From Takakia lepidozioides (taxonomy: Eukaryota; Plantae; Bryophyta): a stretch of DNA of 64,000 nucleotides. Each line of letters starts with the position of its first letter. Positions within the stretch are counted from its first letter, which is position 1. This document shows positions 1 to 29,558 of this stretch, piece after piece. Below the pieces are notes generated by a model. It saw only the letters and a list, made by a program, of their open reading frames with translations, was not told where the DNA came from and searched no databases. A program made the translations under genes and the position numbers. Where the stretch lies: positions 91,326,001-91,390,000 of the forward strand of contig CM060731.1 of NCBI GenBank assembly GCA_030704615.1, read 5' to 3'.

Positions 1-2700
1 CCCTGCGTACTGATGCAGAACCATTTTCTGAGGAGGACGGGGTGACACTTTTCGGTGTCCACCTTGCCACCGCATTCTCTGTGGTCTTCCCTCTCGTGGC
101 AAGGACAACCACACATCCACCGTCATCCAGAAGCATCCCCGCCAGCCCAAACCCGGCTTTCCAGTAGTCCTCAGTAAACCTGTTCCAGGTGGGCACACCA
201 TCCAGGCCCTCCAGCAGCTCCCCATCTGGAATGTCGAGGAGAATCATGTCGCAAGCTCTCTCCACCTCAACCCCCCCCCGAGTGCTCTTGCAATTCGTGC
301 TCACAGCCGTGAAGAATTCCATCATGGCTTCAAAACCAGGGGTGTCTTTAGGCTCTGTACTGGCAGCCCTCTTCTTGGCTTTCCCCTTCTGCTCCGCCAG
401 AGACTTGTTGTGTGCCACCTTCTTCGCCCTGGCAGCGAGAGCGTCAAGGAAGCTCTCATTGACGCATTGGATGATGGTTGGAGGTTCTAGCTTTGGCCTG
501 TGCGTAAACGTCACCGCCGAATACCGCCGTGTAGGCTCGCCCTCAAATGCCAACTTCTTGGCAGAGCCAGTCCCACTCCGAACTGACTTGGGAACCCGGA
601 CGACCGGTGACTGGGTAGGAGCAACAGCAGTCGCAGGACCTTGAACAAAATCGGCGTCGGAGTCACTCTCTTGGGTCCCCTCCTGCGCCTCCTCCGATGC
701 CCGATGGTTTTCTTCTTTTTGGGTGTTACTGCAGTCACCTGTTTCCTTGTCCTTTTCCTTTGACCTTTACTCTTCTCATGCAATTTCTCCTGAATTCCTG
801 CCTGAGCAAGCTCTGCCGCTTTCCTGGAGTTCGCAAGCGCTTTTGCCTCTTTTGCACCCAACGGAGGCAGCGGAGCCCGGTTTCGTCGGAATTCAGCATC
901 CAGCTTCAATTGAAACTCGGATGGGTCGAGCGAGCCGGGCGGAAGGTCCACATACCAAGGGCAATCACGCAAATGTTCCAGATGCCACTCCTTCACAATA
1001 TCGTCAGTGTACATGGAGTCAGCCCCAGGGTTCCTCCATGCCAGGAAGAATGGTGGCTCGAAAGACAGATGACCTTTCTCCAAAAGCGAGAACTTACAGT
1101 ACCTGCATTCATGAAAAACACAATGAGGTCCGAAAATGGCTAAGTCTCTGAACGGCAATAGGGCCTACAACTGGAATATGGCGCCGAATTTCCACTTCAG
1201 GGCCACCCAGTCTAGGGACTTAGCCCGAAAATGGCTAAGTCCCTCGACGGCAATAGGGCTAGAACTGGAAAACGGCGCCGAATTTCCAGTTCCGGGCCAG
1301 CCAGTCTAGGGACTTAGCCCGAAAATGGCTAAGTCCCTGGACGGCAATAGGGCCTAGAACTGGAAAACGGCGCCGAATTTCCAGTTCCGGGCCAGCCACA
1401 CTAGGGACTTAGGCCGAAAATGGCTAACTCCCTGAACGGCAATAGGGCCTAAAACTGGAATATGGCGCCGAATTTCCACTTCAGGGCCAGCCAGTCTAGG
1501 GACTTGGCGAAAATGGGTAAGTCCCTGAACGACAATAGGGCCTGGAACTGGAAAATGGCGCCGAATTTCCAGTTCCGGGCCAGCCAGTCTAGGGACTTAG
1601 CCATTTTCGGAGCCCTGACTGGAAATTCGGCGCCATTTTCCCTAACACCACTTGAGGCCTCTAACATCCTGCAATGCCAGGACTTGAAAGAAAGGCAGCG
1701 CGTATGTACCTGTACAGAAGGCGCATTGCTGCTTTGTCCGCGTTCGGCTGGTCGGTGAACTCGTGGCTCCGGCGAGCATCTGCTATCTCCCGAAAGAATA
1801 GGTTGGTTTTGTAGAGCAGAAAGTACCTCGTCACATAGTCACGTAGGCTCTCTGCTGCAGGAGATATCTCCATCTTGAACTGATGTGCTTGTGTGTCCAG
1901 CTGCTCTTGCGCATTCGTCGTCACCTGTGGAGATTGTCCATCAGATCGCTTTCCTCAAAAAATACAATGAATCCACCCCCTACTAGAGTACAAGCCCCAA
2001 ACGAAGCGTGGGGAAGTACCTGAAACCACCATGTCATGCGGTTCATCCACATGTCGAATGTGGGTCAGAGAGTTTGTCCGGTTTGGGGAAGCTCCACATG
2101 TCCCTGGTACTTTGGGAACCATTCCAGATTTGGAGCCACCGGGTCTGTCCAACCACCCAGCATATTCGTAAGCGCCAAACACCACAAAAAGGAGTTGTTG
2201 CCACCACAATTTGGTTAAGAATGTATCACCTTTTCTGTTGCATCCACACAGGATGTGGCTAGACGATGGAGCTTCTCCAATGTCATCGTGGGCTTCAGAG
2301 CGCGAGAGTAGTGCTTCCCCACCTCCATCAGAAAGTCGGCACCAAGGGCGGGATCAGCTATGGCCACGTACTTTACCATCCGCGACTTGTACTTTATGCG
2401 GGCCCTCACCTCCGCAGCTTTGACATACGATTCGAGTTCCGGGAGGGTTGGATTCTTCTTCTCTGACTCCATGTAGAACCTCCGCGCATGTGCCAAATCC
2501 TGCTGTATTTTCGTCTGTCGAAAAGGCGCACATAAGATTAGAGATCCTGCTCAACACAATTTCTTCTATTGGGGGAGGAGAGACAAATTAGCTCAACAAA
2601 ACTGTGAGGAGCTTTACCCGAAATATGTAGTCCACCATGGCGTCGACGCTCAGCCTATACCAGGTTCTGTCTGCCTTTGCCTCCGACAAGACTTCCTTTG
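1..2700 (-). pseudogene. Accessory gene of E1 (middle exons plus start of the N4C/N6A-MTase-like domain); N-terminal ParB part missing, frameshifted
   Basis: Exon translations AKADRTWYRLSVDAMV, VAIADPALGADFL, ADKAAMRLLYR, PPFFLAWRNPG and DMILLDIPDG (224-235) match the E2 gene in the same order. Confidence 0.8.
1128..1640. repeat. Tandem array of ~95-bp units (about 5) plus an inverted partial unit, core GGAAAAYGGCGCCGAATTTCC, inside an intron
   Basis: Units start near 1130, 1225, 1319, 1414 and 1508. They lie between the splice donor after LLYR (~1709) and the acceptor before YCKF (~1103). Confidence 0.9.
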
Positions 2701-3130
2701 GGGGGGGCCCGGATGGAAATTCGGCGCCGAATCTCCGTCCATGGGATGTTCTCTGTCGCACACTCGCCGGCCTCTGCGCCCGAGGCGACTTCATCCGGGC
2801 GTCCCCTGTTCGATATTCGGTGCCAAATTTCCGTCCGGGGGTTGAAATGTGACGGCCAACTGCAGGCCATTCCCCCCTCCCCGACTGCATCCGAACCGCC
2901 CCGGATGGAAATTCGGCGCCGTTTTTCCATCTGGGGATGTTTTTATGCCGTCCAGTTTTCGGCCTGACCCCCCGACACGACTCCCTTTGGGGGGCCCGGA
3001 TGGAAATTCGGCGCCGAATCTCCATCCAAGGGATATTCTCTGTCGCACACACTCCGGCCTCTGCGCCCGAGGCGACTTCATCCGGGCTTCCTCTGTTGGA
3101 TATTGGGTGCCGAGTTTCCATTCGGGGGTA
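2692..3130. repeat. Palindrome-containing repeats (GGATGGAAATTCGGCGCCGAATCTCC) between the divergent genes of E1
   Basis: A ~140-bp block is duplicated (about 2692-2830 and 2981-3120), with further motif copies between. Confidence 0.85.
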
Positions 3131-3306
3131 GTAATGTGAGGGCACGGTGCCGGCTTCTCCCCTTCAGCCGTCATCATCCGGACGGCCCCCCACTTTCTGA
3201 CTGCATACCGTTGGCAGTTATTGCGCAAAGACCAGGGGTCGCATTCCGGAGACAAGGTTCATTAACACTATGACTGTGGATTTTTGAGATAGTTGGCTCC
3301 CTGGAT

Positions 3307-6300
3307 TTGGATCAGGCTTCGTCGCTCGACAAATCGGCATCGCATTCATTCCCATCGCTGCACCCCCTTCTACCAGGGAGCTTCCCCGCACGCCATCCTG
3401 GCAGTCTTGTGTGCACATCTCCCATGGCGGAAAACCCGAGCGCTACAGTGTACTGCCCTCCTCACGAGCATAGAGCTTCATTTCCGTGCAGAGGGGACAC
3501 CTGCCGGGTGATGGAGAAATATCTGTGCGTTCGATACCACCTGAAACCGGGGTCGGTTTTTTTGGAGGAGGAAAGGAAGGACTCAAACGGCCTTGTTGTC
3601 GAGAGTATTGTTGTGCTCCACGATGATTTCGGCGATGGCAGGGAATGGCGAGTTCCACCATCGGACAGGGTCATATACAGGGCTGTTGGGGACTTCATTT
3701 GCCCGCCAAATGCACCGTCTATCCTGGCGCCTTCCACGAAACAATCCGCGAATCAGAGAGTGGGTACCTCAAAGAGAGAAGTCCGCAACGAAGTAAATCC
3801 AGAGCCGAACCCATCCATGAAGACGACCGAGAACCGGGTTGTTCACAACCTGTCCGACTCAGACGAGGTCATGGAAGTTCCGAGGTCGTCCTGGAGATCA
3901 GGCAAGTCCTCAATGGACGTCAGTGGAGGAGGGAGTCATATTCCCAGCACGAGCACCGCAGTTCGATCTATTCTAGAAATTCTGCGAGGGCTTCACCTGG
4001 AGGGACACCGGTCGGAGCTGGCCGGGCTCGACTACAGCAAGTTCGCAATTAAATTGGTTACATGCCTTCCCGCCGACGTCGACGGTAATATCTTCTTTGA
4101 GTTCCCTCCTCGGGCGGACTACTCGAGGGCGTCCGGAATGTTGACAGATATGGATAGAAAACATGACGGTCATCCTTGGTGCGTTACCAAAACCACCAGC
4201 ATGAAGATGCTTGATGGTGTGCGGGTGCGCTACGTTGTTTGTGCGGGCGCGTTGCGGTGTTTCTCCCCAACTTGCTTCCACTTTAAATCCAGAGGTCACA
4301 GGAACGAGACCGATTGGACAGGCACAGCTCACCAACCATTTCGAGCTCAGGAGAAGGTTCCGAACTCCACATTTAAGTGTGCGCATTGCAAAGAACCACC
4401 ACACTGCATGTCTGTTTGTAATGCCAAGCAGTTCTATGTGTTGCACCGTTTCCCTGACCTCACCCGAGCTTGCATACACGTTGGTTCCCATTGTCACAAA
4501 TTGGCGAGGGGGAACTCGCGGGAGGCTGCCCACGAAGCAGAGCAGCTCGTTCAGGAGGAGGTTAAGTTGAGACCGGGTGCCAAACCCAAACAGATACAGC
4601 TCCAAGCCGCCCATAAGATGGCATTGGCCAGAATTATGTCGGAAGACGGCTCCGATAGAGTTCCTCTCGACGAGAAGGAAATGGAGGCATTGCTGGAGTC
4701 GGTGTCCCACGTATGTTCACCGAATGTCCGAAACCACATTGTCTCATGCAAACAGAAAATTGGGCGTGGCTCGGATATGCACTCCATTCTGGAGGTGAAG
4801 CGACGATGTGGATATGACTACATTCATGGAAGTAGGTTTCCAGGACAAGGGACTGAGGCAGATCGTTGTTTCGTATTCAAAATGTCCACGTGTGGACCTG
4901 GCAGTGGCGTCGAACTGGTCGACAGGATGACGAGTGGGAACTTGTCAAACAGTTGGGTCATGTTCGACCATATCAAGCGAATTACAAATCACCAGTGGGT
5001 GACAATGGGTGCACATGTCTACGACACCCACTGCAGGATGCTAATGACAATTGCTATTTGTGAGATGAAAGGAGAGGACACACAATCGGAGATGCTTCTT
5101 TGGCAGGGAATAAACGAACAGATGGCCAAGGCGGGATTGCCCCCTCCCAATTTCCGTGGTTTCATGGCGGACAACGCACAAGCAAATTGGGCTGCCATCC
5201 GAAGGGTGTACGGGCAAGACCCCAATGTTCCCATGGAAGGCAAGGAGAGATCTTGTGGGTTCCATTTTCTGCAGAGCCTTTCGCAGTACACAACCAGGCT
5301 CGTGGCGCCAGATTTCAGAGAGGAGCACCGTTCCATGTGCCTTGCGTGGAAGCGCGCTCCCACCTTGGATGATGCAGAGACACAGTTTGCATGCATACGG
5401 GCTTGGTGGACATCGTCAGGTGCTGTAAGGAAATCAGACGAAGGAGCAATGGTCAGTTGGCTAGCATGGTGGCATTATCGTTTCCTCCAGTTCGGCGACT
5501 ATATGCGGGAGGTGAGTTGCACGAATTCGCGTCCCGTTGGATATTATTCTTGGCCATATTTGTAACTTGCTTGTAACCTCAACATGTGCTTGTGCAGGAA
5601 ATGTGTCTCGACTCCAACACCGACATGCCCACGACAAACATGGCCAAATCAGTGCACTCTTCCTGGCGTGCCTCCTCTGCGGCGCATCTGGTGGACATCC
5701 TCACTGCCACAACGGAGGACATTGTGAGGTCAATTATGCAGCAATGCAGGTACAACGAGTTCTTGAAAGGGAAACAGTGGGGCTTGGGGCCGGACAGGCA
5801 GGAAATGCTGATGCGGACTGCCTCTAGATCGAAGAATCCTCGGAAGTGGGCGGCGGCCTTGCGAGAGGGCCTTCGGGACACGCCATTGCTGCGAAGAGGC
5901 CAACATTTGGAAGGAGATGTTCATACCCGTCCAGTGAGACGAAGACTTGACGAGGCACCTGGCGGAGAAGAGGATTCATGGCGAGCTGACAAGAATATTC
6001 GCACGCTCCCTCGTGGTCCGGTGATGTTGTCCGAGGAGGTCTCGTCGAGCACCGGAAGTCCTGCACGTTCAAGATCGCCATCTCCTTTGAGCACAGGGCG
6101 CGTGCCCCGGCAACATAACGAGCCATCTGTAGTAAAGCAATACAACATTCCCATTGTGGAGACAAGAGTGTCGGAGTCACAGTGGAGAATTGCGAGGACA
6201 TTGCCGGCATTTCGAGGGAAGTGTTGCGCCATCCGGGTGGATACGAGAGCACGCTGTGGTGAGATGATTCGGAGGAACCCACACGGTGCTGTACCTGCAC

Positions 6301-7016
6301 CTTGTTTCAGCGGCAGATTTTTTACTCCCACATTTGCTCACGCCACAACGCAGACATTTTGGTTCTGTAGGCACGACATAATGACCTGTGTATTTGGCAA
6401 GCCCAAGTACGGGATTCAGGGAATGCCGGAGCCTCCGGGCGTCTGGCCTGTTGCACCGGGTTGCAGCCTCTCTCAGAATGAGGCGGATGCTCTATCTGCA
6501 GCAGGATTTCAAATGGTGCAACGCACAGACATCCCGGCCCACGCATTTCCGGTTCCTCAGACCCAGCCATTGCAGACTGCTCGGTCCAGTAGAGACGGAT
6601 TGGACAATTCTGCACATCCCACAATGCGATTCGGAAGAGTGAAGAGACGACACCCTCCCAACAAGTTGAATGAGACTCGGATTGCCAATGCTCTTGGGAT
6701 GGCTTGCACTATTCAGAGCTCCGTGGACGTACCCCCACCCGGCCTTGGGCGTGTGTATCGGATGGCAACGGCCGGCTCGGCTGTACGCGACGATGTATAC
6801 ACAATTACGATTGGAGTGGAGCCGACTTGCAACTGTACGGACTTCTCGTTGATGGAAGCAAAGAAGGGTTCGAAGTATTATCCGTGCAAGCATCTGTATT
6901 ACATTTACCTGAAGAGGTTGAGGATGAACGTGACTATTGATGACTTTATTCATGCACCGGCGTTGAGCGTGAACGAGCTGCACAAACTCCTCCTTAGGGA
7001 TTCCAGAAATCATTGA
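3307..7016 (+). CDS. MULE-type transposase with N-terminal Cys/His (GCM/WRKY-like) domain and C-terminal SWIM finger; intron 5512-5597; true start uncertain
   Basis: WVMFD...FMADNAQAN...CGFHF (CxxH)...TTNMAKS, and SWIM CNCTDF...YPCKHLYY. A GT-AG intron joins ORFs 3307-5565 and 5586-7016 in frame (YMRE|EMCLD). Confidence 0.88.
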
Positions 7017-7159
7017 TGGGGCAAACGGAATCCTCCATATGGATATTTTCAAATGCATTTTGCTGTATCAGACTTTTTTTTTGCAGTGTAATGAAATGCA
7101 CCCCAAAACTCCTGGAATGAGGCAATATTCCATTCAAACTGAGATCCAACAGAAGCAGT

Positions 7160-7530
7160 TGTGGGGCCATTTCTGGAAAAATGGCGCCGAATTTCTCTTT
7201 TTGGGCCGAAAACTCGCTAAGTCCCAACATGCACTGGTACCTGTGTTTGGGAAAATGGCGCCGAATTTCTCTTTTTGGGGCCGAAAACTGGCTAAGTCCC
7301 AACATGCACTGGTACCGTGTCTGGAAAAATGGCGCCGAATTTCTCTTTTTTGGGCCGAAAACTGGCTAAGTCCGAACATGCACTGGAAAAATGGCGCCGA
7401 ATTACCTGTCATGAGGGGACCTATAGCCGTGGAATTCGGCACCATTTTTCGCCAGAGAGACCTATTGCCGCGAAATACGTCGCCGTTTTTTCAGGTTACG
7501 GACCCTATTACCGCGAAATTCGGCGCCATA
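7160..7530. repeat. Subterminal array of ~75-bp units, core GGAAAAATGGCGCCGAATTTC
   Basis: Units near 7174, 7250, 7323 and 7385, followed by inverted motif copies. Confidence 0.88.
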
Positions 7531-7699
7531 TTTGCACATGTCGCTGGGAATTGGCATGAGCGGAAGACGAAATTTCATGAGCACAACTGTCAAAAGTGCA
7601 ATTTTTCCTTCAAGGGGCCGAATAATATATTTGTTTTTCCTGACACATTGCATTAAATTATTGTTTTTTATTGTTTTTTATTTTCGAAATTTGTACTTC

Positions 7700-7775
7700 T
7701 GCTCATGAAAACCGATTGTGTTACTACTCTGCTCATGCCGCTCATGCCGCTCATGCTCATGAAATAGCAAACCTC
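7700..7775. repeat. Right terminus of E1: short TIR with GCTCATG subterminal repeats
   Basis: GCTCATGCCGCTCATGCCGCTCATGCTCATGAAATAGCAAACCTC. Confidence 0.85.
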
Positions 7776-8703: not shown

Positions 8704-9924
8704 AGTACAAGGGGGATGATGAGGGGGTGGTGAGGGGAAGGAAGAAGATCGAAGGCTCCTCAAGCAGGAGAAAACTTTAGGAATCTCGACAGTTTGCAAA
8801 TGCATACGGACGGTCAATTTACCTATACAGGATGTCAAGTGAAACTTGAGGGTATCACCCTCCGATTTTAGTACATGTGTCACTATCATCCATGTATGTG
8901 GATGGAACGTGTTGGAGGGAGGTTTACTATTTCATGAGCGCATGAGCCCATGAGCCTATGAGCCTATGAGCTCATGAGCGGGCATCCGCGGAATTGGAAT
9001 TTTCCTGCCTTTATTGACGGTGTTATGTCCTCTTACCTCGGTAATAGGGTCTGTTTCTCCTGGTCCAGGATGCGGAATGAGGAATTTCGGCGCCGTTATT
9101 CCCAAGAGCAGTGTGCTAAAATGGTGTTTTGAAGACATCCACCAGGGTATTTCGGCACCGAAATTACCTCTTAAAATGTGATATAGTGCGGTATTTAAAG
9201 GCGCAGAACGGGCAATTTCGGCGCCGAAATACCCAAGTGGAATGTGGTGAAGTGCCTTGTGCTGAAGGCTTCCATCGCAATATTTTGGTGCAGTAATTCA
9301 TCCGTGGAATTTTTGAGGCCCATATAACGAAGGCGCAAACTGGGCTATTTCGGCGCCAAATTTCCGAATAGGAATGTTAGAAACGGCAGGGTTTTCATGG
9401 CTTCAAGTTCCCGGCTCGATGGTGTGCATAAATTACTTGTAGGGTTCTTCACTGAAGTTTGCGTCTCTTCTGCTTTTATTATAGATTTTGGTTGGCGGAA
9501 GAAATGTAGGGAATGGACAAGAAGTCTGAACACAATGATTTTTCAAATCGTCAATATTTTCATTAAGTGTTTCAGAACTGTACAACAAAAGGATCCAAAT
9601 GAGACTTTGCTATGGTGAGGATCCGCTATCACTGTCCGATGCATCCCCGCCCTCATGCAAGGATGGCTGCCTTCCACCTGCCTCCGAACCTGCACTGCCG
9701 CTACCGCTGTTACTCTGAGAAGCCCTCCCCTCAAAAATACCATCCTCACCAGCCGGAACTGTCCACCTGGGTGCGGAAGTGTCCTCAACATTCCCCTCGC
9801 TCTCGGACGCGGATTCTATTACGAACTTCCCTACTCTGCCTTTCACAATTCTATGTTTGGCCTCACGCCTCATTATAATTCTCTGCTCATTCCCGTATGT
9901 CAATTGCTCTAACCGAGTAGGCCT

Positions 9925-10232
9925 AAGACACCCACCAGGCGCGTATGGTTGCAAACTCGGTCTCCGCCTCGTCGATGGAATTCGCATTTTTCCACGCTAG
10001 GCACATACTGATATGATCTTGCCGGTGGCGTGACGCCACGAACCTTTTCGTGTTTTGCGTCAAACTCTGCATGAAGTGGAACCCGCAAGATCTCTCCTTT
10101 CCTTCCATTGGAGTCTTTGGGTCGTCCCCATATACCCTCCTAACTGCAGCCCAGTTTGCCTGGGCATTGTCAGCCATGAAGCCCCTAAAATCGGGAGGGG
10201 GCAACTTGGCTCTCGCCATTTGCTCATTAATT
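9925..10232 (-). other. Displaced fragment of the transposase catalytic core (INEQ...FMAD...CGFH...RAWWVS)
   Basis: Closely similar to E1 transposase 5110-5415; the same segment is absent from the E2 transposase at ~31281. Confidence 0.9.
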
Positions 10233-12524
10233 CTTGGCCGATGCGATTCTGTCTCCTCCTCTGCAACAGGGTCCGATTCGAGCAAGTCTCCCAGCTTCTC
10301 CTCGTCGGACGACTCTGCAAGGCTGAGTGTACGCACAAACATAGAATGAAGTACATTAGAGAATTCAAACAGGGAATCATCGGCAGGTTGCATGGTCCCT
10401 ACAACCGAAACCAATACACTTACTATGGTGCAACTCACTCGAAGACAGGCATTGGGGGAAGCGGCTTCGGGCGCCCCTGCATCGAACAAATTTCCCGGAC
10501 TTCCTCCTCTTCATCTTCCTCCTCTCCTTCCACGTCCTCTTCTGCGTTTTTGGGATCCTCAGTCGGAGGCAGACGCTGAAGGCCCGCCAAATTGTAATCG
10601 TACAAGGCCATATCCCCCTCAAATGAGAACACAAATCGGTTCGACATCCTTCCCGCCCACATACAGGCACCTGCGAATTCATACGACACAACCACAGCCA
10701 AACTCAAGAATGAGTCGCTTCCTCGCACAAGCAAACATACAGAAACGGAAATGGTGTCAATTTCGGTGCCGCATTCAATTAACGTTCTCACCTGTATTTG
10801 CAGTGACGTCAAGGACCCTGCCTTCAACATCCGTACACGTTTCCATGAGCGTCTGGATGAATGCAGGACTCCTGGTCCTCCCATACCTCCATGGCTTGCC
10901 CGACAAATCACAAAGAATGTCCTTCTCTCCCACATGGTTGAACAGGACGTTATACTCCAGTGGATCAACTGTGGAATCAACAAGTCTTCCTGCTTCACGT
11001 AATTTGAATTTTGAATGTTCCTTCACGAAGCAAAATGCCTGAAAGATAAGGGTCTGCAGAGAAGGAAATGAAAACGTCAGAGGTGGCCTACACGTACAGG
11101 GGCAATTTCGGCGCAGAAATTGACATAGCAGAGGAGAACCACAGCATACCTTCTGGCCATCGTTGAGAAGACCCTGCGTGTTGATGCAAGTCCAGATCTT
11201 TTTCAGGATGGGTGCTGCACTTCTCCCCGTCCATACTTTGATATCATTCTCAGTGACTTCTCCATCGGCTGCTAGCACAACAACACAGCCAACGTCGTCC
11301 AACATGTTGGCTGCGAACCCGAATGTGTGGCTCCAGTATCTTTCGTCGTACTTGTTCCACCAGGGAACTGAGCCCAGCCCCAGTATCTCCTGCCCATCCG
11401 GGATATCCACAAGGATCATGTCGATGGAGGCTTTCACCGCCCTGCCCCCGACTGTGCTCTTTTTGCCGTGGCTCATCGCCACAAAATACTCCATCATCTT
11501 TGTGTAGCCAGGAGTGTCCTCCATATCATTGCCAGTGGCCTTCCTCTTCCCCTTCCCCTGGTGGGCCTCGATCGCCTTCCTCAATCTCGTTATCTCCAGC
11601 CTTCTGGTCAGAGCAGTTAGGAAATTTTCATTAACACACTTCACAATTGTGGGTGTTTTGAGGACTTCCCTGCCCGCAATGTGCACCGCACGGTAGGGTC
11701 TGCCAGGTGCATCCTCGTATAGTGATCTCTTCGCAGCCGACCCCCCAGAGCGCTGGCCCTTGTGAATTTTCGGACGAGGTGTGGCCCCCTGGGTGTTTTC
11801 CTGCTGGAAATCGTCGTCGGAATCCTCCTCATCTGGCTGATTGTGTTGCTGCTTCTTCTTCTTGGGTGTGGGGGTCTTCGTCTCTTGCCCCTGTTTGCGC
11901 GTTCTTTTCTTCCTGTCCTTGGGCTCCTCAGCTGCCTGCTTCTCCATCTGCTCCTTCGCCAACGCTGCCGCCTTGGCTGACTTTCTCAGTGCTTTCTGCT
12001 TGGCTGCCTCCTCTGCTTTCAGTCTTTCCGCGTCCTCTGGTTGGGGATCCGATTGCGCCTTCATAGCCCTGGCATTCGCTTCCTTCTTCAAGTTAACCTC
12101 CGAGAGGTCAACGGTCCCACTTGGGAGATCCACATACCAGGGGCAGTCTACCAAATGCTCGGCATGCCACTCCTTCGCCATTACTTCTGTGTACATCGTT
12201 CCACGACCTCCAGGTGTCCTCCATGCCAGGAAGAATGGTGGAACCCTTTGAATGGCTCCGGACGGAATGAGTGCAAAGTTTATGTACCTGCAATCACGAG
12301 GCAGTTCAACAAAAATCATTCTACCGATGCATCATGCAAGTGGAAGTTGTCAATGCACAAGGTATTTCGGCACCGAAATACGGAGTGGACCGTGCCCCAA
12401 TTACCCAGAACTCACATCTTGCAGAGGTATATTTCGGCGCCGCAATATCCATCGCTGCTTAACCAAATCATCTAAACTGCAAATAGGGGGATGCATTGTC
12501 AGCATATTACCTGAACAGGACACG

Positions 12525-12611
12525 TGTCGTGCGCATACATATCGCTACACAACTACATCGCTGTCCAAACCACACCACACATATATGCACAATAAAGTAG
12601 TCTACCACAAT
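12525..12611 (-). repeat. Terminal repeat A (87 bp), outer copy
   Basis: Identical by eye to 12968-13054. Confidence 0.95.
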
Positions 12612-12965
12612 GATAACCATACTAGAAAAGGACACACTCTCAACACAAGAAATATGCAATCCCTCAACATCACTCTTTAAGATAATAGTCGAGCCAGGGG
12701 CACCCCAAGCTATGGGGACTCCACCCCACAACAACCTACACTCCCATCATAAGCACACTCAGATCTGAAGAATGCAGGAGCTCGGTCGCGCAGGCTCAAC
12801 TCGAGAGAGATGAGCCGCGCGACTGCCGCTCTCGTGAAGATAAGACGGACCAGGTGTCAAACTAAACTTGATACCTGATTTAACACTTGACCTAAATCCA
12901 AGTGTTAAATACAAATAACTAGTTTTATGCTAGCTGTTTTCACACTGTGCTTATTTAACTTGACA
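12611..12965 (-). repeat. Terminal repeat B (355 bp), 3' copy
   Basis: Matches 24600-24954 with two substitutions seen. Confidence 0.95.
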
Positions 12966-12967
12966 GC

Positions 12968-13054
12968 TGTCGTGCGCATACATATCGCTACACAACTACA
13001 TCGCTGTCCAAACCACACCACACATATATGCACAATAAAGTAGTCTACCACAAT
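12968..13054 (-). repeat. Terminal repeat A, inner copy; joined to B through palindrome GACA-GC-TGTC
   Basis: TGACA(12961-65) GC TGTCGT(12968-). Confidence 0.95.
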
Positions 13055-13063
13055 CGCCCCCCT
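13055..13063 (-). promoter_or_regulatory. Polypurine-tract-like site (AGGGGGGCG) directly upstream of the inner A repeat
   Basis: G-run at the position expected for a plus-strand primer if A-gc-B is the functional LTR. Confidence 0.55.
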
Positions 13064-13305
13064 AGCTGGTGGATAGGTCCCTCTACCTCCAGATAGCTAC
13101 AAGACGTAATAGCCATACTAAGTCCTCTATCACTGTCCCGATCGTACTCAAACTCTATAGACCAAGAGGCCGGGTACAAGAGTAGCCCCATCGTTAGTCG
13201 CCGTCTTGCAATCTGTGAACTTGAGCCAGGACTTCGTGTATTCAAGGTCTCCTGTAGCTGGGCCTTGCGTTGCTTGTTAGCCTCCCATGGTTGTATCCAC
13301 TCCCA

Positions 13306-14130
13306 CTATCCAATGCATTGTGGACATAACCAATCCCCATCTGGAACCATCTCAAGAGGTGGAGTCAAGCACCCCATATGCCAACCTCTAGAGCATCGAT
13401 CACACACCAGCATGGTGGCTGCCCCTTTAGCAGACCCACACAACATGCACCTCAAACCTGCAGATACCACTGCCAGGTTTGGGTCAACCCTGCCATCAAC
13501 ATTCGGAAGGTGACATGGCGCACAATTACGCACATGGTCCTTCCAAGTTATGCCATCCCGACCCTCCAAGACCAAGACGCCTGAGGGCAAGACCTCTCGA
13601 ACCCTCAAAATCACACGTCCTGCAGTCACATCCAGGGTCGTAGGAGCAGTCTGCTGCAGATAGACATAGTCACCAGGGTTGAATCTCCGAACCCCAGGAC
13701 GATAGCCCCCACCACGTATGGTAGCATACCTCAACGTATCACGGTGTTGTGCAATGGCAAGGTTCTCGAAAGCCATGGGCATGACTCTCTTGAACAACTC
13801 TGCACGCTGCTCACATGCACGTGCCCACACATCCGGATCGTCAAGGTTAAGAACTGTAGCAGCTTCTCTGCGAATGGATGTAGGCAAATCCGACTCTCGG
13901 CCAAAGAGAAGAAAGTATGGTGAGAAGGAGGCAAGTGATGCTTGCTTGCTGAACCTGTAGCCCATGGCTAACCAGGGTAACTGAAGGTCCCAATCTCCTA
14001 GGTGTCCCTTCTGCAAGCCATACTTGCGCAAACCCCTCTTTACTGTCTGAACAACTCTCTCTGCGAAGCCATCGGCCTCAGGATGATCCCGAGAAGTGGT
14101 GCGGTGGTCTATCAAGGCCTTGTCACACAA
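13306..14130 (-). CDS. Integrase C-terminal half plus PHD finger (frameshifted from upstream pol)
   Basis: HPEADGFAERVVQTVK (catalytic E), FSPYFLLFGR, PHD CMLC..CDRC..HMGC..WLCPQC. Confidence 0.92.
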   Translation of the reverse strand: MCDKALIDHRTTSRDHPEADGFAERVVQTVKRGLRKYGLQKGHLGDWDLQLPWLAMGYRFSKQASLASFSPYFLLFGRESDLPTSIRREAATVLNLDDPDVWARACEQRAELFKRVMPMAFENLAIAQHRDTLRYATIRGGGYRPGVRRFNPGDYVYLQQTAPTTLDVTAGRVILRVREVLPSGVLVLEGRDGITWKDHVRNCAPCHLPNVDGRVDPNLAVVSAGLRCMLCGSAKGAATMLVCDRCSRGWHMGCLTPPLEMVPDGDWLCPQCIG

Positions 14131-15665
14131 AGCCTGAAACTCCCCAAGAACTCTCTCCCTTGGTCCGTGAGTACCTCAGCTGGAGCACCGAATCGGCTAA
14201 GCACACAATCCAGGAATGCATACGCAGCTCCCTCACTAGCCTTATCAGGCAATGGAACCAATTCAATCCACTTGGAGAAGTGCTCCACCATCACCAACAC
14301 GTACTTGTTGTGGCGCATGGTCAGTGGCAACGGCCCTGCGAAGTCAAGACTCCACCTGTAGCCCAATCCCATGATCGGAAGAGGGTGCAATTGTGGAGTA
14401 GGGGCGTTGAATGAAGCACGCACCCTGTCACACACCATGCACCTAGCCACAAATTGTTGCACCTCTGTGTGCATACCACGCCACCAATACTGCCCCTGCA
14501 GTAGACTATGAGTGCGTCGCACCCCAAAATGCCCCAACTCCTCATGGGCATGCCGCACTAACCGTGCCCGCTGTGTTGGGTGAGGCACAATCCTCACTCG
14601 ACCATCCTCCCACACTCGGAGCAGGTGTGTCCCCTCCCACCTGAACCTCTTGGCTCGTTGTAGGATCCGATCCCTCTCCTTGGCAGTCATAGTGGCTGCC
14701 GTGTCTCCACTGCGGAGGTAGTCCAACACAACTGAATCCTCATGTATATCTTTGGTGCCACCCTGCTCATTGCTGGCCTCAGGGTCCTCAGACACTTGAT
14801 CTACAGTCATCCCTGTTGTAGGTCCAACCTGGCCTTCCGCTGCCAAGATACACAGAAATGCAGATGCATGCCATCCGGGCACCATCTCCTCGTCCGTCTC
14901 ACCATGCCACCGAGCTCCAGTGTCATCCTGCTGGCTCGTGCATGGATTGCGACTCAACCCATCTGCATTTTGATTGACCAAACCCGGTCGATGCACCACC
15001 TGAAAGTCATACTCTTGAAGGATGAGTGCCCACCGTGCAAGCTTCCCCGTAAGCTTGTCTGACTCCATCAACCACTTGAGTGGTTGGTGATCCGTGACAA
15101 GGGTGAAGAGGTTGCCGTATAGATAGCACCTGAAGTGTGCCACGGCCCACACTGCAGCTAAGCATTCTCCCTCATATGAGCTATACTTAGACTCTGCAGC
15201 ATTGTTCGAGCGGCTAGCATAAGCCACTACGAACTCTCTTCCCTCATCATCCACCTGTGTGAGCACCGCTCCAAGCCCCAGCATGCTCCAATCTGTATGC
15301 AGCTGAAAAGGACGCCCCCTGATAGGTCGTCTCAAGATGGGCGCCGAGGTCAACCTCGCCTTGAGCTCTTGAAAAGCTTGTTCTTGCTCATCTTCCCACT
15401 GCCACTCCTGGTCCACCTTGGTCAGCTTGGTTAGAGCCTTTGCAATGGCACTAAATCCCTTAACAAACCGTCTGTAATAGTTTGCTAACCCCATGAAAGC
15501 TCGAACTCGGCTCACATCCGTGGGGCGTGGAACCTGTGCAATGGACTCTACCTTAGTCTGCTGTACCCCCAATCCTCCAGGATATATCATGTGACCCAGA
15601 TACTCAATCTGGTTGTGGAAAAACTTGCACTTGCCCGGATGTAACTTCAATCCGTGCGTCCTCAA
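14112..15665 (-). CDS. RT C-terminus, RNase H, integrase HHCC and DD core
   Basis: IEYLGH, RAFMGLANYYRRFV, LHTDWS..GLGAVL, VTDHQPL, HEELGHFG..CMVC, SLDFAGP, LTDQGREF. Confidence 0.95.
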   Translation of the reverse strand: MRTHGLKLHPGKCKFFHNQIEYLGHMIYPGGLGVQQTKVESIAQVPRPTDVSRVRAFMGLANYYRRFVKGFSAIAKALTKLTKVDQEWQWEDEQEQAFQELKARLTSAPILRRPIRGRPFQLHTDWSMLGLGAVLTQVDDEGREFVVAYASRSNNAAESKYSSYEGECLAAVWAVAHFRCYLYGNLFTLVTDHQPLKWLMESDKLTGKLARWALILQEYDFQVVHRPGLVNQNADGLSRNPCTSQQDDTGARWHGETDEEMVPGWHASAFLCILAAEGQVGPTTGMTVDQVSEDPEASNEQGGTKDIHEDSVVLDYLRSGDTAATMTAKERDRILQRAKRFRWEGTHLLRVWEDGRVRIVPHPTQRARLVRHAHEELGHFGVRRTHSLLQGQYWWRGMHTEVQQFVARCMVCDRVRASFNAPTPQLHPLPIMGLGYRWSLDFAGPLPLTMRHNKYVLVMVEHFSKWIELVPLPDKASEGAAYAFLDCVLSRFGAPAEVLTDQGREFLGSFRLCVTRP

Positions 15666-16279
15666 GCGCTCAAATACCCCTGAAGGTGTCTCTCATGCTC
15701 CTCCACCGTAGCACTAAAGATGATGATGTCATCTATGTAGCACCGAGCAAACTCCACCCCTGCTAGAATCCTGTCCATGACTCTTTGAAACTCAGCGGGA
15801 GCGTTTTTAAGCCCAAATGGTAAGAACCGCCACTGGTACAGGCAATCCTTCCCGTGCTCATTGATCCCCCAGAATGCCGTCTTTTGCTTATCCGCCTCCT
15901 TGATCGGCAACTGGTGATATCCGGATCGTAAATCCAACGTGCTAAAGACCTTGGAATGCCCAATGGCATCAAAGATCTCCTCTGGTGTCGGCATGGCATA
16001 CCTATCGGACTTGGTCTGACGATTTACAGGCCGGTAATCACCGCACATACGTCTCTCCGTCCAATTGCCATAGACATCCTTCTTAGCTGGCATCACTGTG
16101 GCTGAAGCATACTCTCCACCAGAGAGCTCCACCAAACCTGCCTCCCAGAGATCTTGAGTCCTCATCTGAATCAAAGACCTCTCCATGTCACTGTATCTAT
16201 AGGGTCTCCGAAAGATTGGCGTGTCAGTGGCCAACTCAATACGGATCTCTTGACCCTTCAGTGCTCCCAAGTCCTTCAA
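15662..16279 (-). CDS. Reverse transcriptase core (Ty3/Gypsy)
   Basis: RMCGDYRPVN, FSTLDLRSGYHQ, LPFGLKNAPAEFQ, YIDD. Confidence 0.96.
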   Translation of the reverse strand: MKDLGALKGQEIRIELATDTPIFRRPYRYSDMERSLIQMRTQDLWEAGLVELSGGEYASATVMPAKKDVYGNWTERRMCGDYRPVNRQTKSDRYAMPTPEEIFDAIGHSKVFSTLDLRSGYHQLPIKEADKQKTAFWGINEHGKDCLYQWRFLPFGLKNAPAEFQRVMDRILAGVEFARCYIDDIIIFSATVEEHERHLQGYLSA

Positions 16280-16559
16280 ACTGAAGGCAAAGCAATTCCT
16301 GTAAGCCCTCAGGAACCGCCGTATACGTGTCTCTCTCCTCCAGTGACAATGCGTCCAATGTCAGGCTCCCAATTGTCCTCCGTAACTGCAACCTTAAGTC
16401 CAGTGGGCTTAGAGGTAGAGGACGCGTCCCGTGGTTGCTATGCTGCAACCTCTTGAGCAGTACTCCCTTCCTGCTCAGTCAATGACAAGGCCTCATCCTG
16501 CCCCATCATCTTATCATTGAGAACCTCCTCATCCCAAGAAGAATCCCCAACCTCATTCA

Positions 16560-18974
16560 TCACAGCTGCCTTGGCTGCCAACTCCCTTGAACCTCGAGCA
16601 CCTCCCACGTGTGCCATGGATGTCTACACCCCGTGGTCCTCACCGGCTCGCCCCCACTCGCTGCCTGTACCGTCTCGGTAGGCAGAGAGACCATCAAGGG
16701 AAGTGCACTCCGCACTCTACGTTGCTCAGCCATAGCCAAGCTGACAATCCAGGTCAAGCAATTGAGATCCATTGCTTGCCCCAACACCTGACGACGTGAT
16801 GCCTCAGAAAGAGATGGCACCGCCGTGGTCCCAGTGGAAAACCCCATAGCCCGCTCTCGCTCGTCGGCATTAGGCTCCACTAACTGCTGCAACTGAGCAT
16901 CCCACAGGAGGCCAGGTCCACCATCCCGAAAAGCATGGGATCCTGGGAAGCTGAGCAGTGTAGGTAATGCTGCTCGTGGGTGACCCATCCTGTTGACCAC
17001 TGCCAAAGGCGAACGGTCATCGTGTCTCACACGTTGAGACTGCCTCCCTGTGTCCAAAATGCCATCCACGGTGAGGTGTGCTGGCCGCTGCACCCCATCA
17101 AATGCACGCTTGAGCAGTGCGGGTGGCATCAAGTTAGTCCACCATAGTCGTGGACGATGAGCCCGTGACCCCACTGCAGCTGCATCCAGCAATACTGCTG
17201 ACCCAAGCCACGACCGGACTTGATGCACACTGGCCATCACCCTGGCCCGAGAATCACCCATCAGTGGCACATTCTCCAAGATGTATGCCGGAGATACAGC
17301 CTGATGAAGCTGCAAGTGGCGCAAAATCCGCACCATCTCCCAAAACAGACCCGTCCTCGAGTCTCGCAATCCATTGCCATGCCCGGCTGATGAATGCCCT
17401 TGGCAGGGCCAACCTGCCACTACCAGATCAATGGAGCCAACCCGCTCCAAATCCTGCGCCCCCAGCAACGCAATGTCTGCTGGCAAGGCTTGCTGATATC
17501 CACGAACTGCAGACACCGGCAACAACTCAGGGTGCTGCTGCACCATCTGAGCAACATGGCGCAGTGAGACGCGTCGTGCAGTCTCATCCCTCTCCACATA
17601 CAGGTAACGTCGAACTCGTACACCTGCCTGCAGCACTGCAGCCAATCCAGTGCTGATCCCGCCAAATAAGTCCAGAAGGCATATGCCTTCATCCGGCCGC
17701 TGCCACACAAGAGGTGTGGTGTCCAATGGCGACAACTGAGGTGGCCCTGGTGCAATCACCGCACTCTCCTCCTCTCCTGACGGTACAAAAGCTTCTACCC
17801 AAGCTTGTTGCACCCGTCCATCAGCAGCTTGCTGCAAATCCTTGCTCGTACCCCACAACGGAGTGTGAGCAACCATGGCAGGCAACTCCGCCGTACCATG
17901 CATGTCATCCTGCTCTGCTGGAGGTGGCACATCCTCTGCATGGGCATTGCCTTCCAGCAACTCTCCAGGCCAACTAACTGCAGCTGTGAAGGCGGCTAGT
18001 GTTGGCATCTTGCCCCGCTGGGCAGCTGCAATACCCCCAATGAATGTCACAGGGAGCTGTGCACGGCGACCATCCCCTGACTGCCATCCAGGCCTGTAGG
18101 ATGCTGACTCCTCCCAGAAATCCAGGGTGAAGCCCATGGGGTATAACACTGCCCCACCAACGAGGACATCGTAAGAGACCGCGTCTGTCACAATGGCCTT
18201 GGCTCGCATCACTGAGCCATCTACAGGATGATCCGGCTGCAGTCTAATAGCCAACTGATGCCGTGTCATGCCGCGAGCCTGCTCTGATCCTCCCAGAGAT
18301 GTCTGTATCTGGAAAGGACAAGGCTCCATATCCGCCTCCATGAGGCCCAAACCTGCAATAGCAGCTCTGCCCAACATCAGTGGCTGAGCTCCTGAGTCCA
18401 ACAAGACCCGCAGTGGCCGGTACTTCTTGCCTGCCGGTCCACTCAAAGTGAAAATGCCTCCCTGGTTGTCTAACAAGACAACTCCAGGTGTCACCATGGC
18501 GCGCTCAAAGGCTGGCCTAGCTGGCAGCTCCGTCAACCTGGCAGCTGCAGCTTGCCATGGCGCAGCCGTGGCAGTCTTGACCCTCAAATCCGAGGATCCC
18601 TCTGCCACTACACCTTCCACTAACTCCGCAGAAGATGAAGTGACCTCCCCACTCTCACAGAGTGTTGCTGCTAGTCTGAACACTGCAGCTGGTCTCACCT
18701 CCGGCGTCGCAATCATTGTTGCCGAGAACAGTGGGGCCTGACACACAGAGGTGGCTGCCCCCAATAACACACCGGCCGCACTAGCCTTGGCAGCAGGAGT
18801 CAGCTGCACGTGTAGCTCTCCCCAATGGCATAGTAACCTCCGCCTCGGTAACAGTCGGGCGAGAACTAGGTGCCATGGATGGCGTCGACACAGTCTCCGC
18901 CAATGTGAATGACTGAGGAAGCCTCGCCTGACGGCTTGCCTCCCCACGCTGTGGATCCAATTCCACCTCTGCAC
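16560..18974 (-). CDS. Aspartic protease plus DNMT3-like C5-cytosine methyltransferase (MTase ~16735-17690)
   Basis: VLLDSGAQ protease motif. LLDLFGGISTG (I), YVERD (II), DLVVAGWPCQGHS (IV), YILENV (VI), AHRPRLWWTN (VIII), ERERAMGF (IX), RRQVLGQA (X). Confidence 0.92.
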   Translation of the reverse strand: MQRWNWIHSVGRQAVRRGFLSHSHWRRLCRRHPWHLVLARLLPRRRLLCHWGELHVQLTPAAKASAAGVLLGAATSVCQAPLFSATMIATPEVRPAAVFRLAATLCESGEVTSSSAELVEGVVAEGSSDLRVKTATAAPWQAAAARLTELPARPAFERAMVTPGVVLLDNQGGIFTLSGPAGKKYRPLRVLLDSGAQPLMLGRAAIAGLGLMEADMEPCPFQIQTSLGGSEQARGMTRHQLAIRLQPDHPVDGSVMRAKAIVTDAVSYDVLVGGAVLYPMGFTLDFWEESASYRPGWQSGDGRRAQLPVTFIGGIAAAQRGKMPTLAAFTAAVSWPGELLEGNAHAEDVPPPAEQDDMHGTAELPAMVAHTPLWGTSKDLQQAADGRVQQAWVEAFVPSGEEESAVIAPGPPQLSPLDTTPLVWQRPDEGICLLDLFGGISTGLAAVLQAGVRVRRYLYVERDETARRVSLRHVAQMVQQHPELLPVSAVRGYQQALPADIALLGAQDLERVGSIDLVVAGWPCQGHSSAGHGNGLRDSRTGLFWEMVRILRHLQLHQAVSPAYILENVPLMGDSRARVMASVHQVRSWLGSAVLLDAAAVGSRAHRPRLWWTNLMPPALLKRAFDGVQRPAHLTVDGILDTGRQSQRVRHDDRSPLAVVNRMGHPRAALPTLLSFPGSHAFRDGGPGLLWDAQLQQLVEPNADERERAMGFSTGTTAVPSLSEASRRQVLGQAMDLNCLTWIVSLAMAEQRRVRSALPLMVSLPTETVQAASGGEPVRTTGCRHPWHTWEVLEVQGSWQPRQL

Positions 18975-20636
18975 CTCGTGGCTCAGGAACTCGTGCTGCT
19001 CCTCGAGTCACGGCTGCAGCAGACTCCACCTGCTCTAGTGGTAGTGCTGCTCCGCACATAAATCCCATGCCTCCCATATCTCCTCCCTCAGGAGCAGGAG
19101 GTGGACCATCCCGCCTGGGAGCCGGTACCGCCTGAGCTATAGCCATGGCAGCGAGCCTCTGCTCTAGCTGCTGAAGCCGATTGGCCATGCCTTGGTCAAC
19201 ACCCTGACCTCCGCGTCCTTGGCCATGTGGAGCTTGCCCTTGGCCTGCACCTCGTGCCCGACCACCTCGTCCTCTTTGGGCTGGTCCACCTCGCCCCCGG
19301 CCACCATTGTTCCCTTGGAACTGGCCTGGGCGCAACTCAGGATGCAAGTCATAACACTGGGCATCTCCATGCCCATACTTGCCACAATGCCCACACTGCA
19401 ACTGTGCAGGCTGTGCTTGTGCCGGCCTTTTGCCACTCTCTGGGCAATCTCTCTTGACATGGGGTCCTCCACATGTCCAACATATCACCCCTGGTTGCTG
19501 TTGGCCTGCAAAAGATGCCACGGGCCTCTGCACCTGAGGTCCCCTGTAAGCTCCATGGAACTTGGGCTGGGCAACCTTGCCCCCCTGACCACGCTGTTGG
19601 GCAGTCCCTTGTGCCTGTGGGCTGACAGCTGTGCCCGTGCAGGCATGTCCTTGCCAAATCCAATTGTAACAACTCGCTCCTCCACCATGTTGAGCTCAAT
19701 CCGCTCAGCCAGCAGAAACACATCTGCTAATGTGGGTTGGGCTGCTTGTAACAGGGTTGCATCTCGCACCCTTCTCTTGAGCTCCTTGTCCAGAATTCCA
19801 TACCAAAACTGGATTGCCTGAGCTTCAGTAACCCCTTGGGTCACACTTATCAAGCGCCTCATACGAGTGTACGCCTCTCGCAGGCTCTCACTGGGTTTGC
19901 GCTGGAAGTCTTGCAAACTTCGCAGCTTCTCTGTCCGTACACCTTGGTAGTTCCTCCGCAACTCCTGGAAGAACTCCACCACCGGGTTGAATCTAGGCAC
20001 ATGTGTTGTAGTCGTGGCAGGAGGAGTAGTAGCACCTTTTGAACTGGTACCACCTACAGAAGTACCAGCACTACTTGCTCCACTACTAGTGCTGGCAGTG
20101 GGAGCTATTGGTACTGATGCAGCTACTGGTCGCGTCGTGCCTCGAGTAATGGAGACGTAGTCAGGTGACCAATACATCCTCCACTCCTCAATCTCTGCTT
20201 CATGTCCTCGCCTGAACTCGTGGTAATCGTCCATAGGCGGGCCTTCCAAATGCTGGAACAGTCCCTTCCACGCCATGAATGGGGTGAATAGCTGTGGATT
20301 GCGCATCTGCTGCAAATCACACCAGCTGTCGAACTCCTGGATAAAGTCATCCAACTCGATTGTGCCCACAGCTCCAGAGTACCTACGAGGCCCCTTGGTA
20401 GCTCCATACATCTCCTCCATGTCGTCCCACAACAATGGCGAATGAAAGTGCACACCTGTTGATGAAGCCTCCGAGTCTGTGTCTGACTCTACAGTAGTTG
20501 AGGGTGGCGGTGAAGGTGGTCTGAACCGAATACCTCGTCTTGTGAACCCACTCTCACTGTCACTGCTTGTAGCCGTACTCCCCTCAAAACCCTTGGGTAA
20601 CTCCGTAATGACACTCACAATGTGCACCTCCTCCAC
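18781..20636 (-). CDS. Gag (capsid-like plus two zinc knuckles), split by a frameshift near 19500
   Basis: FQRKPSESLREAYTRM major-homology-like region; CWTCGGPHVKRDC and CGHCGKYGHGDAQC; RG-rich tail. Confidence 0.88.
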
Positions 20637-23600: not shown

Positions 23601-24583
23601 GTTTCTGCTGCCTCTCCCACTTCAGCGCAACATTCAGCGTCCAGAGAGTGAAGTCCCTCAAAATTTAGATGAGAGTGAACCCACCGGCAACAGGAGTGCT
23701 CTCAAGCGGACATTGAGCGCCCTCCACTGACTCAGTTGAGTGTGCAAACCTTTCTGCTCATGCAGTTCCAGCAGTCAATACTCACTCCTAGTGATGATGA
23801 CGTTCATGCCCTGGAAGACCACCCTCTCCTATCACCTTCAACTGAAAGACTTGGCTGTAGACTGAGCATTCATACTGTTTGTCCTTCTCCAGCTTGAACC
23901 ATGTCACATCATGCTCATCCTCGCCAACACCTCCTGAGCATCCAACTATCCGCTCATCATAGTGTGACTCCACATTGCAGGGGCATCCTTGGTTCCAAAG
24001 GGACCACGAGGCGGATCCAGATCAAAAGCGCTTCCCACCCGAGCGCTCCGCTTCCAACTCCTCCAGCTCAACTCCTGTTGCAATTCCAAAATCGCCCGAG
24101 CTGCCTCTTGCACTTGCCAAATCACGACTACGATGCAACCACCGCGCATATGAGAGACCCCGATGTTCTGATTGCTCCGCTTGCGGTTGCGGGTTACACA
24201 GCAATGTCGGTGGAGGCACACATGGTACACGCCTGGATGCAACCAACCGTGGAGAGCCTGCATCCAGCGCCTCCTCAACATAGCGCCCCCACTCCATCTG
24301 GGCCTTGCCATCACACCACCAGCTGCCATCGACATCCTCCGCAGACGGGCGACGCCCTTACAGTGGAAGCACACCTCGCCAATGCCAACAGAAATATGGG
24401 CAGACCACCATTACTCTCTCTTCTACCACACCATTGCGACTGAAGATGTGAGACGAACTCAAGCTAGAGCCGTTCTATGCTCCTTGCTTGAGCTGCGTAC
24501 AAGACCATGACCATCTATATTATAATAGTGCTTAAAAAAAACAAAAACATCATATCTAGCTTAGCACTGGAAAACTAGATAGT

Positions 24584-24600
24584 GCTCATCTCTCTCGAGT
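24584..24600 (-). promoter_or_regulatory. Primer-binding-site position complementary to the element's own LTR (self-priming candidate)
   Basis: GCTCATCTCTCTCGAGT (24584-24600) is the exact reverse complement of ACTCGAGAGAGATGAGC (24788-24804). Confidence 0.8.
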
Positions 24601-29420: not shown

Positions 29421-29558
29421 TGTGAACTTGCTGTTTTCGTCCGTTTTTTTAACGTACGTTACACACCTTCATCTTTACGTGCACTGATCACCCATCCTGT
29501 TGGATACGGAATCCTCCAGAAAATCATTTGTGTTATTAGGTAGGACACACTCTTCTCA

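Follow-up and report, generated by a model that had tools for sequence, protein, structure and literature searches.

We report the analysis of a 64,000-nucleotide stretch of the Takakia lepidozioides genome (GenBank assembly GCA_030704615.1, contig CM060731.1, forward strand, positions 91,326,001 to 91,390,000), referred to below as the window and numbered from its first letter. The window holds a Mutator-like DNA transposon, E2 (8919..34720), whose accessory gene ends in a methyltransferase-like domain, together with a paralogous element, E1, and a third element of the same terminal inverted repeat (TIR) family, E3. Here, we tentatively propose, from sequence and by analogy, that the accessory protein is a pseudo-methyltransferase, which would bind the element's own CGGCGCCG palindromes without methylating them and counter the silencing of cognate elements.

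Element E2 and its accessory gene

E2 is a non-autonomous, dead copy of about 13.4 kb without its nested retrotransposon. Its TIRs are imperfect, with CATGAGC repeats at both tips, and it is flanked by a 9-bp target site duplication (TSD), TGTTGGAGG, at 8910..8918 and 34721..34729 (both plus strand). The transposase gene (29620..32886, plus strand) is broken by frame changes and an internal stop and is divergent from the accessory gene, the two lying on opposite strands and facing apart. No Pfam MULE or PDB match was found for the transposase; a SWIM finger was detected at the Pfam cut-off in the E1 copy, and DDE-like residues (D..D..CxxH..E) were read by eye against the motifs typical of such transposases. 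Because of the SWIM finger, the DDE-like and CxxH residues, and the 9-bp length of the TSD, E2 is classed as a Mutator-like element. Contigs from DNA runs contain many related copies.

The methyltransferase domain belongs, with very little doubt, to a transposon accessory gene carried as cargo. Read on the minus strand, the gene opens with a predicted ATG at 27155 and closes with a stop at 10435; its eight predicted exons total about 1,150 codons. The exon model was built from tblastn between the E1 and E2 copies, GT..AG splice signals, and Ceratodon homology. The predicted protein begins with a disordered N-terminus and a ParB-like region containing DGNH, continues through a helical middle and a charged linker, and ends in the methyltransferase domain.

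Predicted exon 1 (26143..27155), an open frame, holds the disordered N-terminus and the ParB-like domain with its DGNH motif. Exons 2 (25999-25810), 3 (25718-25434), and 4 (25349-25230), all open frames bounded by GT..AG introns, make up the helical middle region (25230..25999), which is common to E1 and to the start of Ceratodon protein P0027 (blastp E 6e-9). Exon 5 (24955..25149) is frameshifted near 25040 and, compared with the E1 exon, lacks a net 10 nt; its 3' remnant (12511..12520), severed by the retrotransposon, is collinear with the uninterrupted E1 exon. Intron 5 (12288..12510, 223 nt, recognized by its splice signals) contains two palindromes. Exon 6 (11150..12287) carries a WY(V/L)(D/E)-type conserved block, a basic/acidic linker, and the N-terminal half of the methyltransferase domain, which includes PxWN and motif IV (DIPD, 11396-11407). 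Intron 6 (11054..11149, 96 nt, GT..AG, one palindrome at 11109) is a second in-frame intron missed by a preliminary description of the sequence; its donor is kept in a related copy, and homologs gap or end there. Exon 7 (10792..11053) encodes the motif X loop and motif I, LDVTANT|G (10813-10792), and is followed by intron 7 (10671..10791, one palindrome at 10764), which had been recognized previously and is confirmed at 121 nt with GT..AG ends. The last exon (10435..10670) encodes the helix after motif I, the motif II strand (Glu 10618-10620), an acidic tail, and the stop; it aligns with ALEED/ALERD of homologs and with IEx(D/E/K) of phage enzymes. Most genomic homolog open reading frames (ORFs) end just past the TG of motif I, and the motif II Glu is retained wherever the last exon is present. 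A contig from a run guessed to be RNA spans 11160-12290, retains intron 6, stops at the intron 5 acceptor, and shows no spliced joint.

The N-terminal domain may be ParB-like, a weak assignment: the language-model neighbors of this region (a weak lead) included PF02195 (11% of members), DUF6551, and DUF3723, and Box II of the window copy reads DGNHM rather than DGxHR with its Arg. A single-sequence model of the region (predicted local distance difference test [pLDDT], 35) was too low for use.

The E2 copy of the accessory gene is dead, through the frameshift and the insertion of the 12.4-kb retrotransposon within exon 5. Between E1 and E2, 101 compared codons had a nonsynonymous divergence (dN) of 0.44 and a saturated synonymous divergence (dS) of 3.6, with third-position identity of 43% (versus 64-65%). 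Across three regions of the accessory gene, dN was 0.36-0.45 and dS ranged from 1.2 to saturated, which indicates purifying selection; the transposase core had a dN of 0.22. The preliminary description had supposed that the domain was kept under selection, and the comparison of the two subfamilies supports this.

Identity of the methyltransferase domain

The C-terminal domain of the accessory gene is almost certainly a beta-class amino-methyltransferase fold, as the preliminary description had claimed; the assignment is made through homologs, by their profile and structure matches and by motif order. In the window (minus strand), the motifs run IV ... X-I-II, the same order as in beta-class enzymes. 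Pfam, PHROGs, and NCBIfam searches with the window's own protein returned nothing relevant, and a word-index search with the window ORF gave no match. A phmmer search of 1.84 billion representatives retrieved 26 relatives (E<=1e-3), 7 more came from two profile searches, and 33 homologs were aligned. The only relatives with a named organism were hypothetical proteins of Ceratodon purpureus; together with a pentatricopeptide repeat gene in the window (see below), they suggest a non-seed land plant, likely a moss. One of these proteins, P0042 (26% identity to the window domain; pairwise blastp E 6e-16), matched PF01555 over residues 14-223 (E 1.9e-8; 35 bits, cut-off 26.7), so that the N6_N4_Mtase profile recognizes the homolog and does not recognize the window's ORF. 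The family profile matched CcrM across positions 42-220 (E 0.0023); its WD40 matches in the PDB were rejected as short repeat artifacts.

Structure comparisons were made with the AlphaFold2 model of P0042 (pLDDT, 85) and not with the window's own protein. The model is a circularly permuted Rossmann fold of order IV-TRD (target recognition domain)-X-I, and it matched M.BceJIV (Foldseek E 2e-14), CcrM (Z 20.1; root mean square deviation, 3.6 over 210 residues), MboIIA (Z 18.5), rotifer N4CMT (8S9M; Z 18.2), and PvuII (Z 17.1), with METTL3 far lower (Z about 12). A Rossmann methyltransferase relationship is therefore found. The best structural matches are N6-methyladenine (6mA) enzymes, with N4CMT close behind (Z 18.2 versus 20.1). 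A link to the N4-methylcytosine (4mC) enzymes is unsupported: N4CMT and MpDN4MT1 carry (T)SPPY, the family motif starts with Asp, and the best structure matches are to 6mA enzymes. A homodimer prediction for P0042 residues 8-235 was uninformative (score 0.00; alignment not used).

For the tree and the controls, 17 of the 18 fetched loci were used, with a split gene in L009 left out; neither N4CMT nor DN4MT1 was among the rows of the tree. The 13 family rows grouped as a single clade (100/100) on a long branch, for which the tree resolved no prokaryotic sister. hhalign of the family to phiRM10 gave a probability of 96.7. A D(I/V)PY phage or integrative and conjugative element clade was considered as donor and is unsupported; DLPY enzymes score equally high, and the tree resolves no sister. 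A viral scan with P0042 found none, and two loci from a metagenome scan were rejected as chance peptide matches in unrelated bacterial DNA (L001 inspected). Ceratodon P0003 (M758_9G084500) and P0027 (M758_3G218200) form one 90% cluster and lie on different chromosome-scale contigs, a placement that fits a mobile gene in Ceratodon too.

Ordinary and lost motif residues

Translation confirmed the reading of DIPD followed by Gly at motif IV in both copies (11396-11407 and 224-235, both minus strand) and the motif I text, VLDVTANTG at 10816-10790 and LDVTANTG at 10813-10790 (minus strand). Two statements about motif I did not hold. It had been described as completed only after splicing; the split Gly codon is G|GT, which is Gly whether spliced or unspliced, so LDVTANTG is identical either way, and what the removal of 10671-10791 adds is the helix downstream together with the motif II strand. 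TANTG had also been called conserved; Asn stands at that position in 2 of 21 homologs, and the window shows the motif a single time, E1 being truncated at the window edge.

Both motifs had been called noncanonical, which is correct for some residues and not for others. DIP and DVT are ordinary because phage enzymes read D(I/L/V)PY and have Thr or Cys for the motif I Phe: in 17 phage or plasmid control enzymes, chosen by similarity to P0042 (tblastn), D(I/L/V)PY was found at motif IV in 11 of the 16 aligned, and the motif I Phe was absent from 12 of 17 (Thr or Cys there). DIPY is also described as the catalytic motif of HindIII-like systems (PMC12294265). The aromatic and His losses, in contrast, are family-wide. 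Position 4 of motif IV is aromatic in 0/22 homologs (15 D/E, 3 N, 3 T, 1 S) versus 16/16 aligned controls, and the stacking aromatic is absent from both window copies. The His of the HPxxK loop is found in 0/23 homologs (20 Gly; Tyr in the window) versus 17/17 controls; the motif X loop of the window, WRYGRTRS, lacks the His and has Arg for Lys. The first Gly of motif I is kept in 8/21 homologs versus 17/17 controls and is Asn in the window. In a model of N4CMT, the motif IV Tyr stacks on the flipped target base, and His253 binds the ribose of S-adenosylmethionine (SAM) (PMC10406627); the double change of SPPY to APPA is reported to have abolished N4CMT activity (PMC8885841), and a literature search for DPPY-tyrosine mutagenesis found none. 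With the stacking aromatic and the SAM-pocket His missing and the motif I Gly often lost, the domain is probably a catalytically dead pseudo-enzyme.

The same positions bear on whether the protein might instead be an active, if unusual, amino-methyltransferase that marks the element's DNA with 6mA or 4mC, on the palindromes or next to them, and in which another residue (e.g., the family-specific Trp of WRG) substitutes for the aromatic. The fold of the P0042 model is intact at high confidence; the catalytic Asp, the second Pro, the motif X Lys, and the motif II Glu are mostly kept; DIPY-type motifs function in HindIII-like systems (PMC12294265); and algal ParB-plus-methylase accessory genes have been proposed to modify their own elements (PMC12477816). 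We nevertheless regard activity as unlikely, as the aromatic at position 4 is absent from 22/22 and the His from 23/23 homologs, and Asn, Ser, or Ala replaces the SAM-loop Gly in many members, including the window copy. WN of PxWN is present in 22/22 homologs; that its Trp replaces the lost Tyr was rejected, since phage enzymes carry the same Trp, and hence no compensating gain is seen.

Altered chemistry, the other option raised in the preliminary description, would have a DxP(D/E) pocket catalyze a new reaction on the flipped base that might, for example, erase or block a 5-methylcytosine (5mC) mark. Position 4 is acidic in 15/22 homologs, and an invariant-looking WRG stands in place of xxH; yet position 4 may also be N, S, or T, and position 1 is Asp in 19/22 and E, Q, or M in 3/22 (Ser in none), where a new active site would be expected to be invariant. 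This reading is extremely improbable, and a dead, DNA-binding protein fits the variation better.

Palindromes

AT-flanked CGGYRCCG palindromes (CGGCGCCG-type) occurred 84 times in the window, versus 2-9 times in 10 simulations. E2 holds 35, all of them noncoding, with none in the 6.7 kb of coding sequence among its 13.4 kb, and no palindromes were found in the nested retrotransposon. A central array (27650..29360) lies between the two divergent genes, with palindromes of 18-20 bp and half-site GAATTTCGGC; tandem repeats on the right (33990..34480) also bear palindromes, arrays lie within about 0.2-0.7 kb of both E2 ends, and 4 of the 7 introns of the accessory gene contain one or two each. The half-site consensus varies by subfamily: GAAATTCGGC in E1, GAATTTCGGC in E2, and GAAATGCGGC in E3. 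The central array is also rich in CpG, an observation set aside as circular. This layout (noncoding, in tandem repeats, and subfamily specific) is the one that characterizes VANC-type motifs.

Proposed function

We think it fairly likely that the accessory protein binds these palindromes: its N-terminal ParB-like domain and methyltransferase fold would together recognize them as a parS-like site. Occupied CG- and CHG-rich sites in the introns and between the divergent promoters would then block or reverse silencing of the element by host 5mC. The chances of this anti-silencing outcome, which would parallel what the VANC protein does for the Mutator-type element VANDAL, seem to us about even; it is suggested because the layout matches that of VANC targets (introns, intergenic and terminal noncoding regions, diverging tandem repeats). 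A more specific version is doubtful: the dead pocket would flip cytosines of CG/CHG sites out of the helix and shield (or read) them, the protein would stem from a phage-type ParB-methylase, and the whole would be a second, independently evolved anti-silencing system, based on occlusion of the host methyltransferases, in which protein and palindrome coevolve by subfamily.

Palindrome binding by a dead methyltransferase could also serve transposition, with the ParB-like clamp coating the palindromes and organizing the long element or helping the transposase to pair its ends. The same motif losses and palindrome layout would be expected, there are arrays close to both E2 ends, and ParB proteins are described as loading on palindromes and sliding (10.1101/2025.10.10.680097). 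The position of the largest array between the two promoters and the presence of single sites within introns, however, suit transcriptional control, and the separate CATGAGC repeat at the termini is a likelier transposase site; we give the transposition role a low probability. Alternatively, it might be the transposase that uses the palindromes as its sites, with the methyltransferase-like gene carried along as a passenger whose function is unrelated (e.g., RNA binding) or absent. Transposases can activate cognate copies themselves, according to 10.64898/2026.08.24.746577, and both E1, which lacks the ParB-like exon, and E3, in which no accessory-gene match was found, nonetheless have arrays. 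E1 and E3 resemble deletion derivatives, though, purifying selection is seen in three separate gene parts over saturated dS, and the palindromes lie within the gene's own introns, all of which makes a passenger very unlikely.

Several observations weigh against anti-silencing by a dead, palindrome-binding protein. Largely kept are the motif IV Asp (19/22) and Pro (21/22), the motif X Lys (in most rows), the motif I Asp, and the motif II Glu; GAGTG is intact in P0042, and GxG in some members. Because of this retention, SAM binding may persist despite the losses. Many homolog rows are ORF fragments from contigs, possibly decayed copies, which would inflate the counts of degeneracy, and because this lineage supplied the search seeds, any relatives that retain DPPY would be undersampled. 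Run X13 contains a copy of about 90% identity with little sign of constraint (pN/pS, about 0.67; 10 synonymous and 24 nonsynonymous among 34 listed of 40 differences) and a D-to-N change in motif IV; decay of one or both copies would produce this picture. Pfam and PDB searches of the ParB-like region gave no match. In 25 of 57 exact core matches the central CG reads TG/CA, a pattern consistent with past methylation; protection of the sites from 5mC decay has thus been incomplete. The transposase could bind the palindromes instead.

With annotated homologs in C. purpureus and a predicted target of 18-20 bp, the proposed anti-silencing function is testable in a transformable moss. If it is true, the family would be one of sequence-specific, evolvable chromatin effectors and would account for how long, CG-rich elements persist in bryophyte genomes despite heavy methylation. 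Because the catalytic aromatic is lost throughout the lineage, one may ask whether methylation ever mattered or binding suffices by itself.

Other features of the window

In the 3' noncoding region of E2 lies a 309-bp transposase fragment (9926..10234, minus strand), 75% like E1; at this position, contigs of two runs carry 98 other letters, and the fragment looks like a template-switch or gap-repair capture. The retrotransposon nested in exon 5 (12525..24954, minus strand, 12.4 kb) is Gypsy type, with a TSD of CACG or ACACG and 355-bp repeats that differ at 2 sites. Between its protease and reverse transcriptase (RT) lies a C5 cytosine methyltransferase (PF00145, E 1e-12), and a PHD finger is encoded at the C-terminus. 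Its left end (12525-13055) consists of an 86-bp segment, the 355-bp repeat, GC, and the 86-bp segment again, and its right end (24600-24954) is the 355-bp repeat alone, so that the ends are permuted.

E1 (1..7775) is cut by the window edge, and its right TIR ends at about 7775. Its accessory gene (1-2700, minus strand; DIPD at 224-235) lacks the ParB-like exon and begins abruptly in exon 2 beside a 96-bp tandem repeat (2700-3270); its transposase (3274-7016, plus strand) has Lys at the presumed third catalytic Glu of E2. E3 (36177-42600) has its own palindrome variant, with large arrays at 38000-40200, a reversed transposase fragment at 37091-38015, and an internal inverted duplication (40399-41030 and 41569-42183). 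An isolated fragment like the middle region of the accessory gene lies at 59919-60077 (minus strand, E 1e-6).

Broken long interspersed nuclear element (LINE)-like endonuclease/RT ORFs lie at 49280-53161 (plus strand), with CT microsatellites upstream and the 3' part duplicated (51825-52453 and 52517-53161). They are followed by a PLS-type pentatricopeptide repeat (PPR) gene (53686-55821, plus strand; family assigned by eye) with 303-bp repeats, likely a host organellar RNA-editing factor.

Comparison with known systems

A transposon design that combines ParB and methylase domains is already known in algae, there as predictions only; a literature search that covered few subscription papers found no land-plant, Mutator-borne version and no DxP(D/E) motif. 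Sola1-1_Ec32 of Ectocarpus, as described in PMC12477816, is likewise a giant DNA transposon with an accessory gene on the strand opposite the transposase. Its accessory protein has ParB-like and N4/N6 methyltransferase domains (1104 amino acids versus about 1,150 here) and is proposed there to bind and modify its own element. It differs in being a Sola-1 element of a brown alga with a 4-bp TSD, where E2 is Mutator-like, has a 9-bp TSD, and resides in a land plant; moreover, the methylase of the alga is predicted there to be active. The Plavaka accessory genes PAG2 and PAG3 of red algae and Mutator elements of Chondrus are described as bringing PF01555 and ParB-like domains onto DNA transposons, and PAG3 has tandem inverted-repeat arrays beside its ParB-like gene, as here (10.1101/2025.02.11.637652). 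In PAG2 and PAG3 the domains are on separate genes (methylase plus SET; ParB plus 2-oxoglutarate oxygenase), in contrast to the one predicted protein with degenerate catalytic motifs in E2.

The PF01555 enzymes (CcrM, M.BceJIV, M.MboIIA, and M1.HpyAVI) and the D(I/L/V)PY phage enzymes share the fold and motif order, and the phage enzymes also share the D-hydrophobic-P start of motif IV, the downstream Trp, and a DxTxG-type motif I. The family differs from these bacterial and phage enzymes in its loss of the aromatic, the His, and often the motif I Gly, in its introns, and in its long branch. ParB-N6N4 fusions are reported to be common in phages (10.1101/2025.10.10.680097). Rotifer N4CMT and Marchantia MpDN4MT1 (motif IV, TSPPY, according to 10.1101/2021.02.12.428880) are likewise prokaryote-derived beta-class folds in eukaryotes, but they are active, domesticated host genes with (T)SPPY, whereas the family here has DxP(D/E) and rides a transposon. 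Precedent for folds kept after the loss of catalytic residues is described for DIRS1 N6A-methyltransferase domains and METTL14 (PMC4738411), which belong to other clades (PCIF1-like and MT-A70) and, for DIRS1, another element class.

According to 10.1101/2025.02.11.637652, VANDAL/VANC of Arabidopsis is the sole reported case of a DNA transposon that binds and modifies its own sequence. VANC has a proven anti-silencing activity, which the E2 protein would share under our proposal; VANC motifs are nonpalindromic 8-9-mers, unlike the palindromes here, and the accounts cited describe no methyltransferase or ParB domain in VANC. A Pfam scan of the accessory-gene exons gave no match of any kind. VANC motifs lie as tandem repeats in introns and in intergenic and terminal noncoding regions (PMC5735166) and diverge between subfamilies (PMC5735166; PMC10398659), as the palindromes do here.

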